Origin: Promethearchaeota archaeon
Lineage (GTDB): Archaea > Asgardarchaeota > Thorarchaeia > Thorarchaeales > Thorarchaeaceae
DNA: 32,000 bases
Assembly: GCA_027031765.1 (NCBI GenBank)
Contig: JALVPN010000040.1
Span: 83,265-115,264 of the forward strand
Reading direction: 5' to 3'
This document shows positions 5,918 through 23,050 of the stretch, piece after piece. Positions within the stretch are counted from its first letter, which is position 1. Every line of letters begins with the position of its first letter. Both the position numbers and the translations under genes were made by a program. The notes below the pieces were generated by a model, which did no database searches, was not told the origin of the DNA, and worked only from the letters and a program-made list of their open reading frames with translations.

Positions 5918-6207
5918 GCTGTCGTATCTGGAACACTTGTTCCATGGAGGACGATGGCAACGAAACGCAACTCTTTTTATGTAATCATACCATACAACAA
6001 GGTGTCCATAGCGACGGTCAGGACAGATGATATGCTAGTTGTCAGGCCACATGGAAATGCTTTTATTCCCACATAGCGCTCCGATGTGTGCTCAGGCAGG
6101 ATTGCTTCCCGACATGCATGGCCGCGTACCATCTGTCAGATATCAGGGAAGTGTACAATCTCAAACATCGGGCCGGGATGTGACCCTGCATGTCGGTGTG
6201 TACGTAG

Positions 6208-6314
6208 GGGCTCGTGGCGCAGCCAGGTAGCGCAGCAGGCTTTTAACCTGATGGCCGCGGGTTCAAAGAAGCGCGAGAGTTCCTCGCGGTTGGGGTATCC
6301 CGCCGAGCCCGCCA
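6208..6314 (+). tRNA. tRNA-Lys(UUU) with a 30-nt T-loop intron (6268-6297, position 59/60), CCA encoded
   Basis: Acceptor GGGCTCG/CGAGCCC, anticodon loop CT-TTT-AA, T-stem GCGGG/CCCGC. Removing 6268-6297 restores the loop TTCAAAT. Intron hairpin CGCGAG/CTCGCG and 3-nt bulges AA^G and TA^T. Confidence 0.92.
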
Positions 6315-6356
6315 TGCCCCTTCACAAGGAAGACGCAATCTGCCGAGTAATACAAC

Positions 6357-6437
6357 GGGGCGACTATTGCGGGATGTGTGTACTCCGTTCTATGGGGTTC
6401 ATGCATCGGGAAGCATCTGAGTCCGCAGTAGTACCCC
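6357..6437 (+). other. Predicted multi-stem RNA element in the rpoB leader
   Basis: GGGG/CCCC plus ACTATTGCGGG/TCCGCAGTAGT outer stem (6357-6373 with 6422-6437) enclosing hairpins CTCCG/TGGGG and ATGC/GCAT. Confidence 0.45.
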
Positions 6438-6461
6438 GTCCTGCCCCCCGGGTGTCAGAAC

Positions 6462-9400
6462 ATGGTCGGCGAGAGGCGTGACAAATACTGGCCGGTAATT
6501 GAGAGCTTCTTCAAGGAGTATGGGCTTGTTGGACAGCACCTAGACTCGTTCAACCGTTTTATCCGAGAGGAGCTCCAGCAGGTCGTAGACAGTGTCAGCG
6601 AGATTAAGCCGAAGATTGAGGGCTACACCGTAGCTCTGGGCAAGATAGAAGTGCACCCCCCGTCAATCCGCGAGGCGGATGGCAGTGAGCACCCACTTTA
6701 CCCCAACGAGGCACGAATCCGTAATCTGACCTACGCCAGTAAACTATTGCTAGAGTGCACTCCAATCCGTCGTGATGGGTCAACGACCACGCGACTTGAA
6801 ACTGTAAGAATCTACATAGGCGACCTGCCAATCATGCTGAGGAGTGAAACATGTCTTCTACACGGCATGACTGAGGAGGAGCTCATCAAACATGGTGAGG
6901 ACCCAAAAGACCCCGGGGGTTACTTCATAATCAACGGTTCGGAACGTGTCCTAGTAACACAGGAAGACCTCGCTCCGAACAGGATTCTGATTGAGGAGGC
7001 GAGTAAGAGTTCAAGCTACACACACATAGCCAAGGTGTTCTCGACTTCTAGGGGGTTCCGTGCACCAGTCACTATCGAACGAAAACGGACTGGTGAGTTG
7101 CGTGTGTCGTTTCCCTCAGTACCAGGGAAAATCCCACTGGCCATCTTGATGAAGGCCCTAGGACTCGAATCGGACAAGGACATTGCAGATGTAATATCAG
7201 ACGACGAGGAAATCCGAAATGAGCTGATAGTCACAATTGAGCAGTCGGCCCCGATAAACGCCCCACGTGACGGCTCTGGAGGGTCGACAGTCGAGAATGC
7301 CCTTGATTTCATAGGGAAGCGTGTGGCTGTTGGACAGACAAGAGAATACCGACTTGCGCGCGCCGAAAAGGTCCTTGACCGATATCTATTGCCACACATT
7401 GGGACTGAGCCAGAGGACCGCCTCCAGAAAGCATACTACCTAGGACAGATGGTCGAGCGCCTCCTCGAACTCGTGCTGGGGAAACGTCAGCCCGATGACA
7501 AGGACCACTATGCGAACAAGCGTCTGAAACTCTCAGGTGACCTGCTTGTTTCCCTCTTCAGAGTAGCGCTGTACTCGTTGACACGAGATATCAAGTATCA
7601 GCTTGAGCGGACGGCCGTCAGGGGACGGAAGCCTAACATCCGGACAGCTGTCCGTGCAGATGTGATTACACAGCGGCTCAAGCACGCACTTGCTACTGGC
7701 AACTGGGTTGGTGGTAAGGCAGGAGTATCACAACTCCTCGACAGAACCAACTACATCTCCTCACTGTCGCATCTCCGCCGCGTCGTATCGCCCTTGTCAA
7801 GGTCGCAACCACATTTCGAGGCGAGAGATCTCCACTCCACCCATTGGGGAAAGGTCTGTCCCAATGAAACCCCGGAGGGGCCAAATTGCGGTCTTGTGAA
7901 GAACATCGCCATGATGGCATACATCTCGGTTGGCACAAATGAGGACGCCGTCGAACAGGCACTCATGCAGGCCGATGTCGAGGCCATCGAGGCCCGGCAG
8001 GGCCGGCGTGGTGCCAAGTGGGCTGATGTGTTCCTCAATGGTCGGCTTGTAGGCGTACATGCGGCGCCCAAGCTGCTTGTCAGGGCAATCCGTCAGAGGC
8101 GTCGTGCCGGCGAGATTGACCAGGAGGTAAACATAGCATACTATGAGGACACCAATGAGGTCCAGGTGAACTGCGATGCTGGACGCGTCCGGCGCCCCCT
8201 CATCATAGTGGAAAATGGACAGAGCCGGCTGACCGATGAACACCTGAGGATGATTGAGGAAGGCGAATGGACATTCAACGACCTGCTGCGCAACGGGATT
8301 ATGGAATTCCTAGATGCAGAGGAGGAGGAGAACACACTGATTGCAATGTATCCGGAGGACATACGTCCCAACACGACCCACCTAGAAATCGTACCCTCCA
8401 CCATACTTGGCATCTCCGCAGCTCTCATCCCCTTCCCAGAGCATAACCAGTCGCCCCGGAACGTCTACATGGCAGGAATGGCCAAGCAGTCTGTCGGGGT
8501 GCCCGCTTCCAATTTCAAGTTCAGGGCAGATACACGTTCCCACTTTTTCCACTACCCGCAAGTCCCACTGGTCAAGACGCGGGCTATGGACTCCATAGGA
8601 TACGAGGAACGACCCGCCGGGCAGAACTTTATTGTTGCAATCCTATCATTCGAAGGGTACAACATTGAAGATGCTCTGATTCTGAACAAGGCCTCAATTG
8701 ACCGGGGTCTGGGACGCAGTACATTCTGCCGGGTGTACGAGAGTGAGGAGCGCAAATATCCGGGAGGTCAAGAGGATCGGTTCGAGATACCTGACCGTAG
8801 TGTCCGGGGCTATCGTGCATCAGAGTCATACCGCAACCTCGGGGAGGACGGCATTATTGAAACGGAGGTCGAAGTGCAAGGAGGCGATGTCCTGATAGGG
8901 CGGACTTCACCCCCACGTTTCCTAGAAGAGTACTCCGAGTTTGAAATCACGTCACCAAACCGCCGAGAAACATCAGTGGCAGTACGTCACGGAGAGTCCG
9001 GTGTTGTGGACAGTGTAATCCTAACGGAAACAATTGATGGCAACCGCCTTGTAAAAGTCAAGGTGCGAGACCTCCGCATCCCAGAACTCGGGGACAAGTA
9101 TGCATCACGGCACGGACAGAAAGGGGTAATCGGATACCTCGCACCACAGGAGGATCTCCCCTTCACCGAGGACGGTGTCGTACCAGACCTTGTACTGAAC
9201 CCACATGCTATACCAAGCCGGATGACAATCGGTCAAATCCTTGAGATGATAGCCGGAAAGGCAGCTGCAATGGAGGGCAAACAACAGGATGCAACTCCCT
9301 TCTGTGGTGTGACGGAAGAGGAGCTGTTTGGTCTCCTCAAGAAGCACGGCTTTCAGCACACTGGTCGCGAAACTATGTATTCGGGCGTTACAGGTGAGAA

Positions 9401-9827
9401 GCTGAAGACCGATGTGTTCATTGGCTGTGTATACTACATGAAGCTACACCACATGGTGGCGGACAAGATCCATGCGAGGGCCCGTGGACCAGTCCAAATC
9501 TTGACGCGCCAGCCAACTGAGGGGCGGGCCCGCGAGGGCGGCCTGCGTTTTGGTGAGATGGAACGCGACGTGCTCATCGGTCACGGTGCTGCAATCTTGC
9601 TGAAGGGACGCTTACTTGACGAGTCCGACAAGAGTACGATGCTTGTCTGTGAAGAGTGTGGCCTGATAGGCGTGTACGACCGTAACAAGGATCAGTACTA
9701 TTGCCCAATCTGTGGCCCAAGCGCGAGAATCAGCAGTGTGGTTGTGTCTTATGCGTTCAAGCTCTTGCTCCAAGAAATGATGTCCCTTGGCCTTGCATGT
9801 CGCCTGCGCCTCAAGGAGATGATCTAG
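6462..9827 (+). CDS. rpoB: DNA-directed RNA polymerase subunit B, unsplit (Rpo2)
   Basis: GGYFIINGSERV, RDLHSTHWG, ETPEGPNCGLVKN, GDKYASRHGQKG, GGLRFGEMERD, C-terminal Zn motif CEECG...CPICG. Confidence 0.99.
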   Translation: MVGERRDKYWPVIESFFKEYGLVGQHLDSFNRFIREELQQVVDSVSEIKPKIEGYTVALGKIEVHPPSIREADGSEHPLYPNEARIRNLTYASKLLLECTPIRRDGSTTTRLETVRIYIGDLPIMLRSETCLLHGMTEEELIKHGEDPKDPGGYFIINGSERVLVTQEDLAPNRILIEEASKSSSYTHIAKVFSTSRGFRAPVTIERKRTGELRVSFPSVPGKIPLAILMKALGLESDKDIADVISDDEEIRNELIVTIEQSAPINAPRDGSGGSTVENALDFIGKRVAVGQTREYRLARAEKVLDRYLLPHIGTEPEDRLQKAYYLGQMVERLLELVLGKRQPDDKDHYANKRLKLSGDLLVSLFRVALYSLTRDIKYQLERTAVRGRKPNIRTAVRADVITQRLKHALATGNWVGGKAGVSQLLDRTNYISSLSHLRRVVSPLSRSQPHFEARDLHSTHWGKVCPNETPEGPNCGLVKNIAMMAYISVGTNEDAVEQALMQADVEAIEARQGRRGAKWADVFLNGRLVGVHAAPKLLVRAIRQRRRAGEIDQEVNIAYYEDTNEVQVNCDAGRVRRPLIIVENGQSRLTDEHLRMIEEGEWTFNDLLRNGIMEFLDAEEEENTLIAMYPEDIRPNTTHLEIVPSTILGISAALIPFPEHNQSPRNVYMAGMAKQSVGVPASNFKFRADTRSHFFHYPQVPLVKTRAMDSIGYEERPAGQNFIVAILSFEGYNIEDALILNKASIDRGLGRSTFCRVYESEERKYPGGQEDRFEIPDRSVRGYRASESYRNLGEDGIIETEVEVQGGDVLIGRTSPPRFLEEYSEFEITSPNRRETSVAVRHGESGVVDSVILTETIDGNRLVKVKVRDLRIPELGDKYASRHGQKGVIGYLAPQEDLPFTEDGVVPDLVLNPHAIPSRMTIGQILEMIAGKAAAMEGKQQDATPFCGVTEEELFGLLKKHGFQHTGRETMYSGVTGEKLKTDVFIGCVYYMKLHHMVADKIHARARGPVQILTRQPTEGRAREGGLRFGEMERDVLIGHGAAILLKGRLLDESDKSTMLVCEECGLIGVYDRNKDQYYCPICGPSARISSVVVSYAFKLLLQEMMSLGLACRLRLKEMI

Positions 9828-9829
9828 GA

Positions 9830-13707
<3,878 letters not shown>

Positions 13708-19643: not shown

Positions 19644-19803
19644 GGAGTAGGGCATACAGGTCATAGGCACGATTAGTTGATGGCTGTATGATAATCTTGC
19701 ACACGGATCCGGCATTGTGGGCCTGTGGATGCATTCATCAGCACATGTGTGGCATGCAGCCTTGCAGGTGAGCTTTTATTACTGCAAATCGAGGAGGACG
19801 GAT

Positions 19804-21153
19804 ATGCCCAGTGGCACTGCAGAAGACACCGTGGGCCCCGCGGAGCTCCGCCGAGTGATGGCCGACCACAGACTTGGAGAGAAACGTCTGTTGATAGTGG
19901 TCGGCCCGCAGCCGCAGTCACTTGTTGCGGCTGCAATACTCTGTCGTGCAGCAGTGAGAAAGAGAGTACTTGTCCATACAACATTCCTTGAGCCGGTTGT
20001 GGGAACACACGAATTGGAAACACTACTCGCAGACTTCAAGGACCATGATACTGTCATGATTGGTGTGAAACCTGATGGGAAATTCACACTGCAAGGCGAG
20101 TGTATAGTCATTGGTGCTGGAACAGGGATGGGCTCGGCAGCTCCACAGACCGACTCGATATCTGCAGCGGCGGCTACGTATGTCATTGCACATGAGTGCT
20201 TCGGGACTGGAAAAGGCGACATTGGGTTGGCCGCCATGGGCATTGTGATAGAGCACACGCATGCTCCTCCGACCCACGGGGTTGACGCGGAAATTGTCAG
20301 CTCGGCCCTTGCCCAAGGGGAACTGGAACTGCTGAAAGGGTTCAGGCTCTATGGAACTGGTACCCTATCTGTGGTCGATGCACTGTACCACTGTATCTCG
20401 CCGTGGCTGCCGGGCATCTCTGGCAAGAGAGAACAGTGCGAGGCCATCATTGCGGATGCGAATCTTCCGTTTGTGCGACGGACTCTCCCGATACTCCAGC
20501 TTTCTCGCGAAGAGAAACAAAAGGTCACGATGGGGCTTGTCCAACACCTCGACTCTGAGAAATTATCGCAACTGCTTGGGACTGACTATCTTGCACGGTT
20601 CATGGGCAGTGAGGGCGAGGTCATACAGGTGTCAGACATCTATGCTCTCTTGAGAACCGCATGGACGAGGAGGAGGCTTGGACTCGGTCTTGCAGTCCTC
20701 ATTGGCGACTTGAAGTCCGCACAGCAGGAACTCCGGAATCTTCATGTGCGCCACTGCAAGGACGTTATTGCACATGTCGATATGATACAATCCGCCCTCG
20801 AGGCCACCGGGACACTGACTGAGGGCACAACAATCACAGAAATCGAGATTAATGGCATAGACACGGTAATCCTCTCAGATTTGGGACGGATTGCCTTAGA
20901 AACAAACACAGTAACATCACCAGGACTGTTGCTGCGCACCAATCAGGGACTGGAGCAACCGGTGGCATTTGTGTGGCGCCCAAGCGTGCTGACGCTACAG
21001 AAGGTTCTCAAGGCAGGCATGGTGCAGGGGATTGCCATGCGTTCGACATCAGACAACTCGGTCTCGCTCAGGGCGGGGGCAGAACCATTCCAACGGTTCC
21101 ACAGCATGGCAGAGAACCTCCTTGGAGGGAAAGACGAATGCGGGCCACCATAG
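19804..21153 (+). CDS. RecJ/DHH-superfamily protein at the GAN/Cdc45 locus position, catalytic motifs degenerate
   Basis: RecJ-like segments (LVAAAILCRA...VHTTF, LYHCISPWLPGISG, RRLGLGLAVLIGD); overlaps pcc1, as GAN does in the conserved rps15-recJ-pcc1-rps3ae cluster. Start placed at ATG 19804 after GAGGAGG. Confidence 0.7.
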   Translation: MPSGTAEDTVGPAELRRVMADHRLGEKRLLIVVGPQPQSLVAAAILCRAAVRKRVLVHTTFLEPVVGTHELETLLADFKDHDTVMIGVKPDGKFTLQGECIVIGAGTGMGSAAPQTDSISAAAATYVIAHECFGTGKGDIGLAAMGIVIEHTHAPPTHGVDAEIVSSALAQGELELLKGFRLYGTGTLSVVDALYHCISPWLPGISGKREQCEAIIADANLPFVRRTLPILQLSREEKQKVTMGLVQHLDSEKLSQLLGTDYLARFMGSEGEVIQVSDIYALLRTAWTRRRLGLGLAVLIGDLKSAQQELRNLHVRHCKDVIAHVDMIQSALEATGTLTEGTTITEIEINGIDTVILSDLGRIALETNTVTSPGLLLRTNQGLEQPVAFVWRPSVLTLQKVLKAGMVQGIAMRSTSDNSVSLRAGAEPFQRFHSMAENLLGGKDECGPP

Positions 21154-21398
21154 TACTGTCATTTGCGTCTGAAGTAGTTGCGTCGCAAGTGGGACAGGCA
21201 CTGCTACCCGACAACAGAGGAGTGCCCGATGGTCTTAGAATTAGGATGGGAGAATGTGGCCCAATCCTCACGGTGGTCGTGGAGTGTGACAAGGGGGCGG
21301 GCACACTACGCAATACGATAGACGACATACTTGAGGCAGTGGATGTCACACTTAGAACGCGTGACGCCATCTTCACGGCGGCGACCAATGAGTCATAG
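21138..21398 (+). CDS. pcc1: KEOPS subunit Pcc1
   Basis: 86 aa; ALLPDN and GTLRNTIDDIL are typical Pcc1 segments; overlaps the upstream DHH gene. Confidence 0.85.
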   Translation: MRATIVLSFASEVVASQVGQALLPDNRGVPDGLRIRMGECGPILTVVVECDKGAGTLRNTIDDILEAVDVTLRTRDAIFTAATNES

Positions 21399-21759: not shown

Positions 21760-21882
21760 TGGTGCGGAGGGCGAGATTTGAACTCGCGAACCCCTACGGG
21801 AGTACCCCGTTGCCCGATTTTTCACTGGAACAACATCCGGGTCCTAAGCCCAGCGCCTTTGACCAGGCTTGGCAACCTCCGC
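21760..21882 (-). tRNA. tRNA-Leu(UAG) with a 35-nt non-canonical intron (21802-21836, 43/44), CCA encoded
   Basis: Acceptor GCGGAGG/CCTCCGC, anticodon TAG, variable arm CCCGTAGGG. BHB with central helix ACCC/GGGT, bulges GG^A and AC^T, intron stem TGTTGTTC/GGGCAACG. TTATAA at 21912-21917. Confidence 0.93.
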
Positions 21883-22354
21883 TTGTTGGAGAAGAGTTGC
21901 AGCCTGGGCTGTTATAATCCTTTGGCTAGTACGATGGAGGGCAGCCAGTGGGGGGGAGCAATATCGCAAGGTCACACATGTCAAACTTGAGCCACTGGCC
22001 TAGAGCTGGTGGGGGCAGGCAAACGGGGCGACATCCCAGCATCTGAACCATCACTGATACGACTCAATGGCATTCGTGGGCCACATGCAAATCCCTTGTC
22101 AGCCTCGCACTCTAAGGAGCTGCCGTGCCAAGTACAGTGCAATGGCCATCAAACTGTGGAGTTGACATCACTTACGCACTCATTCAGAATCCGTGCGTGC
22201 TTCCTTTTCGGAACTCGTTGCTGAAAGGGAACATACCAAATGAGAGTATAAATCCTTGAACCATCATAAGACGGGGCATATGCGTCGTGTTTGAATTACT
22301 AGATCCAGAAATTGGTGACAGGTTTGCCACGACACATGACCTGGATGATGCTGG

Positions 22355-22486
22355 TCAGTCGCGGACCTCCCAGTTGTGTTGACACCGTGGGCAACGCATC
22401 AGACGACGATAGCCCCCTGTCGGTAGAAGCTCTTTCTTGACGAGCGCTACATCCTTGAAGCCACACTTTGGACACTTTTCGCTCAT
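22355..22486 (-). CDS. 43-aa C4 zinc-ribbon microprotein (TFIIS/TFS C-ribbon-like), not in the ORF track
   Basis: Hand translation MSEKCPKCGFKDVALVKKELLPTGGYRRLMRCPRCQHNWEVRD; CX2C-X23-CX2C; SD-like GTGAG upstream. Confidence 0.75.
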   Translation of the reverse strand: MSEKCPKCGFKDVALVKKELLPTGGYRRLMRCPRCQHNWEVRD

Positions 22487-22765
22487 GGCCACTCACGCGA
22501 TTCGAAGTTCACACAGTCAGATTATCTAGTTTGCTGTTATGTACTGCAAACACGTGACCGATATACGGACGAATCAAAGTGAAGTGGGGCACCATTGCAG
22601 GGACTGGGGGTTTCCGTCCTAGTGACACTGGGAGGACATGAGATAGCCACCAATGCGTCTCGTGGAGCTACTGCACAGCGGTTGCATGGGCCGAGCGGGT
22701 AATATGCAGATGACACCGGGTTTAAAGATAGACCTAGCCCTAACGGATAGCTCGGGTATGTTGTC

Positions 22766-23050
22766 ATGAAGCCCATTGAGGAAAGAGTAAGAAGCGTACT
22801 ACGACAGGATGGGATAGATTGCCATACCGTGTATGCGATGCCAGATCCAGATGCCAAGAAGATACTCCTAGCATTTGGTGCCAACAAAAACCGCAGGCTC
22901 ACAACAAGCAGAATCGAACGGATTCTGAACTCAAGTGGTCTTGGACGTTTCAATGTGCCAAGGGAGTTCCAGAGACTGAGCGCTGCATTTCTTCACCTTG
23001 AGGTTACGCTAGGTGCCGATACCCCCGTCCCAGATGACAATGCACGTTGA
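22766..23050 (+). CDS. Hypothetical protein (94 aa)
   Basis: TTTAAA at 22721-22726 upstream; fills the gap before the co-oriented SDR gene; no family recognised. Confidence 0.65.
   Translation: MKPIEERVRSVLRQDGIDCHTVYAMPDPDAKKILLAFGANKNRRLTTSRIERILNSSGLGRFNVPREFQRLSAAFLHLEVTLGADTPVPDDNAR

Follow-up and report, generated by a model that had tools for sequence, protein, structure and literature searches.

A conserved 43-residue putative zinc ribbon of Asgard archaea, closest in sequence to the TFS/TFIIS C-ribbon and without its catalytic loop

The window analysed here, a 32,000-nucleotide stretch of Thorarchaeial DNA, contains a very short open reading frame whose product resembles the C-terminal zinc ribbon (C-ribbon) of TFS and TFIIS. 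Does such a frame encode a protein, to which family does that protein belong, and could it act on RNA polymerase (RNAP) in the manner of TFS4, as a sequence-only reading of the DNA had proposed? The frame itself, placed by that reading in 22355-22486, is confirmed on the (-) strand as 43 codons plus a stop:

22358..22486, (-) strand: coding sequence of the microprotein, a 43-aa putative C4 zinc ribbon; stop codon at 22355-22357

The two Cys motifs, CPKCG and CPRCQHNW, had also been read correctly. The 22-residue spacing given between them had not: 23 residues separate C8 from C32, and the arrangement is CX2C-X23-CX2C. An in-frame GTG lies at 22492, two codons 5' of the ATG at 22486, and a stop codon two codons before this GTG closes the frame. 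Because every orthologue has an ATG 4-7 codons ahead of the first Cys, the likely start of the microprotein is the ATG at 22486. The stop-to-stop frames of the orthologues span 45-84 aa and carry no conserved extension; no N-ribbon is encoded in frame or nearby, as the sequence-only reading had held.

The microprotein gene is genuine and under purifying selection. The median dN/dS is 0.063 over 71 orthologue pairs with unsaturated dS, and codon-position entropies of 0.60, 0.48, and 1.41 render third positions ~2.5 times more variable than first and second positions. Across 20 aligned family sequences, C5, C8, G9, G24, C32, R34, C35, and W39 are invariant, and A14, V16, E19, R31, and P33 are nearly so. 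The tblastn search of relatives that had been put forward as a check on conservation finds orthologues widely, with the frame conserved. When 41 related genomes were searched with the single protein, full-length matches with 53-63% identity were obtained in 19 of 24 same-family genomes, and a match was also obtained in the one genome sampled from the sister family within the order; overall, identity to orthologues in same-family genomes is 53-65%. A family profile (A1) built from an alignment of 20 microprotein sequences recovers an orthologue in 62 of 76 further same-family genomes, mostly in single copy, at E-values of 1e-20 to 1e-27. Two other Asgard families contain distant homologues (E ~1e-8 in each genome), with database names that include Jordarchaeum and Lokiarchaeia.

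Among 1.84 billion representative proteins, strong matches form only seven clusters, all short. The same search returned no fused forms of the microprotein and, at E<1e-8, no longer forms except unrelated multi-finger proteins. A 542-aa member of one 90% cluster (P0048) was rejected as a family member because it is an unrelated phage-terminase-like protein. A word-index search yielded only one relative, from a Thorarchaeote, because the microprotein is so short. Some family members carry database names such as 'transposase', and one is named RpoM/TFIIS in IMG.

The surroundings of the gene in the window and its relatives were compared, and the following features are relevant:

22521..22534, (-) strand: promoter-like motif of the microprotein gene, GCAAACTAGATAAT, 35 nt upstream of the ATG
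21912..21925, (-) strand: BRE/TATA-like promoter of tRNA-Leu, CCAAAGGATTATAA, 30-43 nt before the tRNA
21760..21882, (-) strand: tRNA-Leu(UAG) gene with intron (Rfam 49 bits; Aragorn Leu(tag))
19717..21398, (+) strand: DHH-CID (RecJ/GAN-like) and overlapping Pcc1 genes (Pfam PF21763, PF09341), convergent with the microprotein gene

The tRNA-Leu(UAG) gene lies downstream on the same strand in 34 of 39 distinct Thorarchaeial loci, at a distance of at most 120 nt in 29 of them. The distance from the microprotein stop to the tRNA is usually 49-107 nt in relatives versus 472 nt in the window (spacer 21883-22354). This long spacer has no Rfam match at E<=1 and no copies elsewhere in the genome; a structured RNA within it was considered and rejected, given a fold z-score of +1.0 (no better than shuffles) and the lack of an Rfam match. 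On the other side, the gene for ribosomal protein eS1 (S3Ae) is the divergent upstream neighbour in 15 of 20 loci, and in 12 of those a p27/SSSCA1-type zinc-ribbon gene follows past eS1. In the source genome, eS1 is found 70 kb from the microprotein on the same contig (C40; 175771-176337 versus 105622-105750), with the orientation still divergent. The synteny break falls immediately upstream of the conserved promoter motif, and the arrangement suggests that a ~70-kb insertion or rearrangement separated the two genes in this genome.

The arrangement differs in two other Asgard families: eS1 immediately precedes the homologue in the same orientation, and on the far side lie a RecJ/GAN-like DHH-CID gene, convergent with the homologue, and then uS15; the DHH-CID/Pcc1 pair of the window is a remnant of this wider Asgard neighbourhood. 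Other contents of the window include KEOPS genes, NurA/HerA, intron-bearing tRNAs, and an archaeal RNAP operon; the Rpo1C is 77-80% identical to its best named relatives, from 'Candidatus Thorarchaeota'. Linkage to this operon (6086-13707) was rejected, as it lies 9 kb from the microprotein gene in an arrangement that is not conserved. In relatives with both genes on one contig, TFS is 9-90 kb away. The eS1/tRNA/uS15 neighbourhood is in keeping with a role in the gene-expression machinery, but archaeal small RNAP subunit genes also reside in ribosomal-protein operons, so it cannot tell a ribosomal function from an RNAP function.

Several further observations were made in the same region. A 94-aa ORF at 22766-23050 (+), divergent from the microprotein gene, has no Pfam match and is absent beside the microprotein in 19 of 19 related loci. 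A tRNA-Ser(CGA) gene recurs 0.2-1.5 kb from the microprotein/tRNA-Leu pair in several genera (loci L005, L007, L011, L016, and L020). A 58-nt tRNA-model match at 6208-6265 (+) (31.9 bits, E 0.005), inside the small ORF that heads the RNAP operon, is probably due to chance.

Upstream of the gene, the motif GCAAACTAGATAT is near-invariant across genera and in nearly every orthologous locus precedes the ATG by 33-40 nt. Its core, AAACTAGATA, has only two occurrences in the 2.95-Mb genome, which rules out a general promoter consensus. The motif is probably a BRE plus TATA-like box, maybe overlapped by a specific site, because its layout matches that of the neighbouring tRNA promoter (CAAAA, three bases, TTATAT). 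Co-transcription of the microprotein and tRNA-Leu genes was considered and rejected, since a separate BRE/TATA-like element sits immediately ahead of the tRNA in each spacer that follows the microprotein stop. The conservation of this element, CCAAAAYGRTTAWAW, in every such spacer argues that tRNA-Leu is transcribed independently of the microprotein promoter.

The gene is absent from three Thorarchaeial genera (g2, g7, and g13; 0 of 8 genomes, several of them 94-99% complete). At their loci (L094-L098), the eS1 leader runs straight to the tRNA-Leu promoter, 60-150 nt away; the microprotein gene and its promoter motif have been precisely removed, and no pseudogene remains. The microprotein is therefore dispensable.

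The 5' leader of the eS1 mRNA itself has recurring features in Thorarchaeia. It extends over ~80-100 nt from a conserved TTTTTATT box to a GAGYGTGAT Shine-Dalgarno-like block (alignment A3: L002:1287-1379 (-), L005:1282-1368 (-), L010:1306-1393 (-), and 14 further loci). Single-sequence folds give two hairpins whose stems differ between genera yet remain paired; RNAalifold applied to a plain MAFFT alignment of these leaders returned no consensus structure. The leader is a candidate ribosomal-protein leader.

The assignment of the microprotein to a family rests on profile comparisons. In hhalign, the family profile A1 matches a profile of 23 Asgard TFS C-ribbons (A2) with a probability of 96.8% (E 2e-10, 39 columns, 31% identity), and the source genome's own TFS C-ribbon with 96.7%. 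The N-terminal ribbon of Escherichia coli NrdR follows at 66.6%, and the controls score far lower: 17.8% for eS31, with alignment to one knuckle only, 15.6% for the p27-like ribbon, and 14.9% for the TFS N-ribbon. The TFS C-ribbon profile compared with NrdR gives 1.6%. When genomes are searched by tblastn, the runner-up to the microprotein orthologue is in many cases the TFS C-ribbon. A single canonical TFS is encoded elsewhere in the source genome. The window microprotein stays below the cut-off of every Pfam and NCBIfam model. TFIIS_C (PF01096) gives 18.3 bits (E 0.002) versus a gathering cut-off of 21 bits, and the NrdR ribbon PF22811 gives 18.7 bits versus a cut-off of 27.2; generic ribbon families match at similar sub-threshold levels, and there are also sub-threshold matches to IS1595 and TnpB-type ribbons. 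Across the family, TFIIS_C matches 12 of 20 members at E<0.01 (best E 3e-5), and some members probably pass its cut-off; CPxCG_zf matches 2 of 20 members at E 0.004. A divergent Rpo12 or eS31 was considered and rejected. These two gave the best sequence matches in the PDB, yet each match is confined to a single knuckle and the order is permuted, and canonical copies of both are encoded elsewhere in the genome (Rpo12 on contig C99; eS31 on contig C217, 70 bits). By these sequence comparisons, the microprotein is closest to the TFS/TFIIS C-ribbon.

The likeness to the C-ribbons of TFS/TFIIS, Rpb9, A12.2, and C11 (PF01096) comprises four Cys residues, a CPxCG first knuckle, a CxxCxHxW second knuckle, and, relative to TFS, the same three-stranded topology. 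The spacing differs by one residue (CX2C-X24-CX2C in TFS versus X23), and the Trp (W39) is invariant in the microprotein family. Unlike TFS and TFIIS, the microprotein consists of the ribbon only; an N-ribbon, a linker, and TFIIS domain II are all lacking. To our knowledge, TFIIS-type ribbons are known only as the working end of multi-domain RNAP factors and subunits, and the characterised members of the TFS C-ribbon family all bind RNAP rather than free nucleic acid.

A second, longer-looped family of zinc-ribbon microproteins was observed in another Asgard family (L061:3001-3183 (-), L062:2929-3135 (+), L065:2911-3135 (+)). Its genes adjoin those for a VTT-domain protein and a GNAT, and it is weakly similar to the 43-aa family. 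A broader comparison is offered by the one-domain C(P)XCG micro-proteins of haloarchaea (the Haloferax volcanii set and Brz), which are likewise archaeal, shorter than 70 aa, and equipped with a single predicted CPxCG-type zinc finger (PMC6562870, PMC11241148, PMC2253796). That set is a descriptive class rather than a homologous family, and it comes from another lineage and another gene context. The microprotein has no significant match to the Pfam families of the haloarchaeal C(P)XCG micro-proteins.

The fold was examined with an AF2 model of the microprotein (pLDDT 86.9), which has strands at residues 14-20, 26-31, and 38-42. The microprotein would bind one zinc ion through its four Cys residues. 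The best match among solved folds is the N-terminal DNA-binding ribbon of NrdR (Z 7.1 and 6.9; rmsd 1.1 A across 41 of ~43 residues; Foldseek TM 0.87). TFIIS-type ribbons (1qyp, 1tfi, and 7ui9_S) score Z 4.1-4.9. However, a genuine Thorarchaeial TFS C-ribbon, modelled as a control (pLDDT 88.8), itself scores no higher than Z 5.0 with solved TFS/TFIIS chains and Z 4.8 with NrdR. Because a true TFS C-ribbon also scores low, the fold ranking cannot exclude kinship with TFIIS, and it was discarded as a family test even though NrdR outranks TFIIS in it. Judging from the models, the ranking reflects the 5-residue tight turn of the microprotein versus the 9-residue Asp-Glu loop of TFS. The HHpred/Foldseek comparison with TFIIS_C that the sequence-only reading had named is thus answered in two ways, with the profile pointing to the TFS C-ribbon and the best fold match being NrdR.

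In the hhalign alignment, the microprotein hairpin is one residue shorter than that of TFS. Q19, R21, D24, and E25 of the QTRxxDE loop are invariant in the 23 Asgard TFS C-ribbons; none of these residues is retained in the microprotein, where the aligned positions read K, L, T, and a gap, with the Asp-Glu pair falling on Thr23 and the one-residue gap. The stretch VKKELLPTGG is indeed present at the place that had been likened to the TFS tip. In the family, tip residues 20-25 are variable (Gly, Pro, Ser, or Thr, with an occasional D, E, K, or R), G24 alone is invariant, and the alignment contains no conserved charge at the tip. The conserved charged residues (K17, K18, E19, R27, R28, R31, and R34) instead lie on the hairpin strands and the second knuckle. 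The microprotein has a net charge of about +4 and a pI of ~9.9; the family median is +4 versus +3 for ordinary Asgard TFS C-ribbons. With the Asp-Glu loop replaced by a variable Gly-rich turn, a protein of this sequence cannot be expected to stimulate transcript cleavage, and a role as a cleavage factor is ruled out on that ground.

We tentatively favour the reading that the microprotein is a non-catalytic accessory factor that binds nucleic acid or a nucleoprotein, a proposal that we regard as a reasonable possibility short of a probable one. In the proposed mechanism, the basic 43-residue protein would fold around one zinc ion into a three-stranded zinc beta-ribbon, and this ribbon would bind a polyanionic partner, either RNA or DNA directly or a nucleoprotein machine of gene expression. 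Direct binding would have an analogy in the equally shaped NrdR ribbon, which grips the DNA backbone through Arg residues. The role of the microprotein would be accessory and dispensable, and its expression would be driven by a conserved promoter of its own beside eS1 and tRNA-Leu; the gene is of a housekeeping type. This reading is based on the NrdR-like fold, the basic composition, the information-processing neighbours, the gene's own putative promoter, and the clean loss in three genera. A shared fold shows no function, and synteny within the family may be inherited rather than selected. The reading is also weakened because the family of the strongest sequence relative binds RNAP and because few of the NrdR Arg residues are kept.

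A different role, by analogy with TFS4 of Sulfolobales, would be that of a ligand of the RNAP secondary channel (funnel), in which a dead TFS-derived C-ribbon competes with TFS or dampens RNAP allosterically. We consider this somewhat unlikely. TFS4 is an RNAP inhibitor (PMC5715097, PMC8448823) whose C-ribbon binds acidic patches in the funnel electrostatically (PMC8448823), and the microprotein shares with it a TFS-type C-ribbon that lacks the catalytic acids. Its basic surface may be a further likeness, but the family's median net charge of +4 is close to the +3 of ordinary Asgard TFS C-ribbons. The TFS C-ribbon is the closest profile relative and the best paralogue match in many genomes, some members probably pass the TFIIS_C cut-off, one carries the IMG name RpoM/TFIIS, and the hairpin has almost the length of that of TFS. 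The model also aligns with TFS4 (7oqy_Y) at Z 3.7, with the VIA alignment giving 32% identity and an rmsd of 1.2 A over 34 residues. However, TFS4 is anchored on the RNAP jaw and lobe by an N-ribbon and linker (PMC8448823), neither of which the microprotein has. The TFS4 tip, ~8 residues shorter than that of TFS1, carries 2-3 conserved lysines that are needed for inhibition (PMC5715097), whereas the microprotein tip is variable and on average uncharged, with no conserved Lys, Arg, or acid, and all four residues of the Asgard TFS loop are missing. Expression also differs: uninfected cells contain no detectable TFS4 transcript or protein, and virus infection raises the level of its mRNA (PMC5715097), whereas the microprotein gene occupies a housekeeping context with a conserved promoter, unlinked to RNAP genes. 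Of the kinship and mechanism put forward by the sequence-only reading, the kinship with TFS/TFIIS stands, with the TFS C-ribbon as closest profile relative and the acids and N-ribbon absent as described; the TFS4-like mechanism is weakened, though it keeps some weight in that the parent domain binds the funnel.

Another possibility is that the microprotein is a lineage-specific ribosome-associated or RNA-binding accessory protein, whose ligand would be rRNA, tRNA, or the structured leader of the eS1 mRNA. Three Asgard families share a conserved linkage to eS1, either in a divergent pair or in an eS1-microprotein tandem; tRNA-Leu is adjacent, and the hairpins of the neighbouring eS1 leader show compensatory changes. 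The protein is small, basic, and putatively zinc-binding, like many archaeal ribosomal proteins. Against this, its clean loss in three genera excludes it from the core ribosomal proteins. The family profile resembles neither eS31 (17.8%) nor other ribosomal ribbons, the genome has its own eS31, and the adjacency fits a gene order that is merely inherited. We consider this explanation quite unlikely.

The NrdR fold match raises the further possibility of a sequence-specific DNA-binding mini-repressor, in which ribbon dimers would sit on, for example, the CTAG-containing motif of the microprotein's own promoter. The NrdR ribbon dimerises and binds DNA, with Arg residues on the equivalent strands contacting DNA phosphates (PMC9110341), and it resembles the microprotein in length, in its tight hairpin, and in the basic residues on strand 2. 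The promoter motif varies unusually little and is specific to this gene. NrdR, however, is a bacterial repressor of two domains, one of them an ATP-cone, whereas the microprotein ends 8 residues past its last Cys, has neither an ATP-cone nor any other domain, and lacks fused forms among the 1.84 billion representatives. Sequence support is low, with PF22811 and hhalign scores as given above, and the NrdR specificity residues are not retained. In the hhalign alignment, R27 and R28 fall on two of the four positions of the RRRR motif, 2 of 6 DNA-backbone Arg positions are kept, and the positions aligned with the base-reading D15 and R17 read K/R and E. The promoter motif, moreover, is palindromic in CTAG only. 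We regard such a repressor as improbable.

Finally, the 'transposase' names of some members and the sub-threshold IS1595 and TnpB-type matches could suggest a transposase's zinc-finger tail, or an ORF that is spurious or decaying; this explanation has a negligible probability, being already refuted by conservation (dN/dS 0.06, conserved start and stop, a mostly single-copy gene at a fixed locus) and by the lack of a transposase domain or repeats.

A more specific variant deserves mention for what it would imply. An anchor-less, TFS-derived Asgard ribbon could act alone in the RNAP funnel as a constitutive secondary-channel modulator encoded beside eS1, perhaps coupling transcription to ribosome supply. 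We hold this to be unlikely; if true, the funnel-occupying ribbon would add a stand-alone secondary-channel factor, the first of its kind, to the archaeal-eukaryotic RNAP lineage.

Asgard archaea are the closest known archaeal relatives of eukaryotes, and their annotations routinely miss the microprotein gene or misname it ('transposase' or 'hypothetical'). At 43 residues, the protein is easy to produce, which makes its role directly testable. In these organisms, a TFIIS-type ribbon appears to have been freed from its multi-domain setting and to have lost its catalytic loop while remaining under strong selection. The microprotein would thus represent either a new way to address the polymerase funnel or a transcription-factor domain co-opted for another nucleic-acid-binding job.
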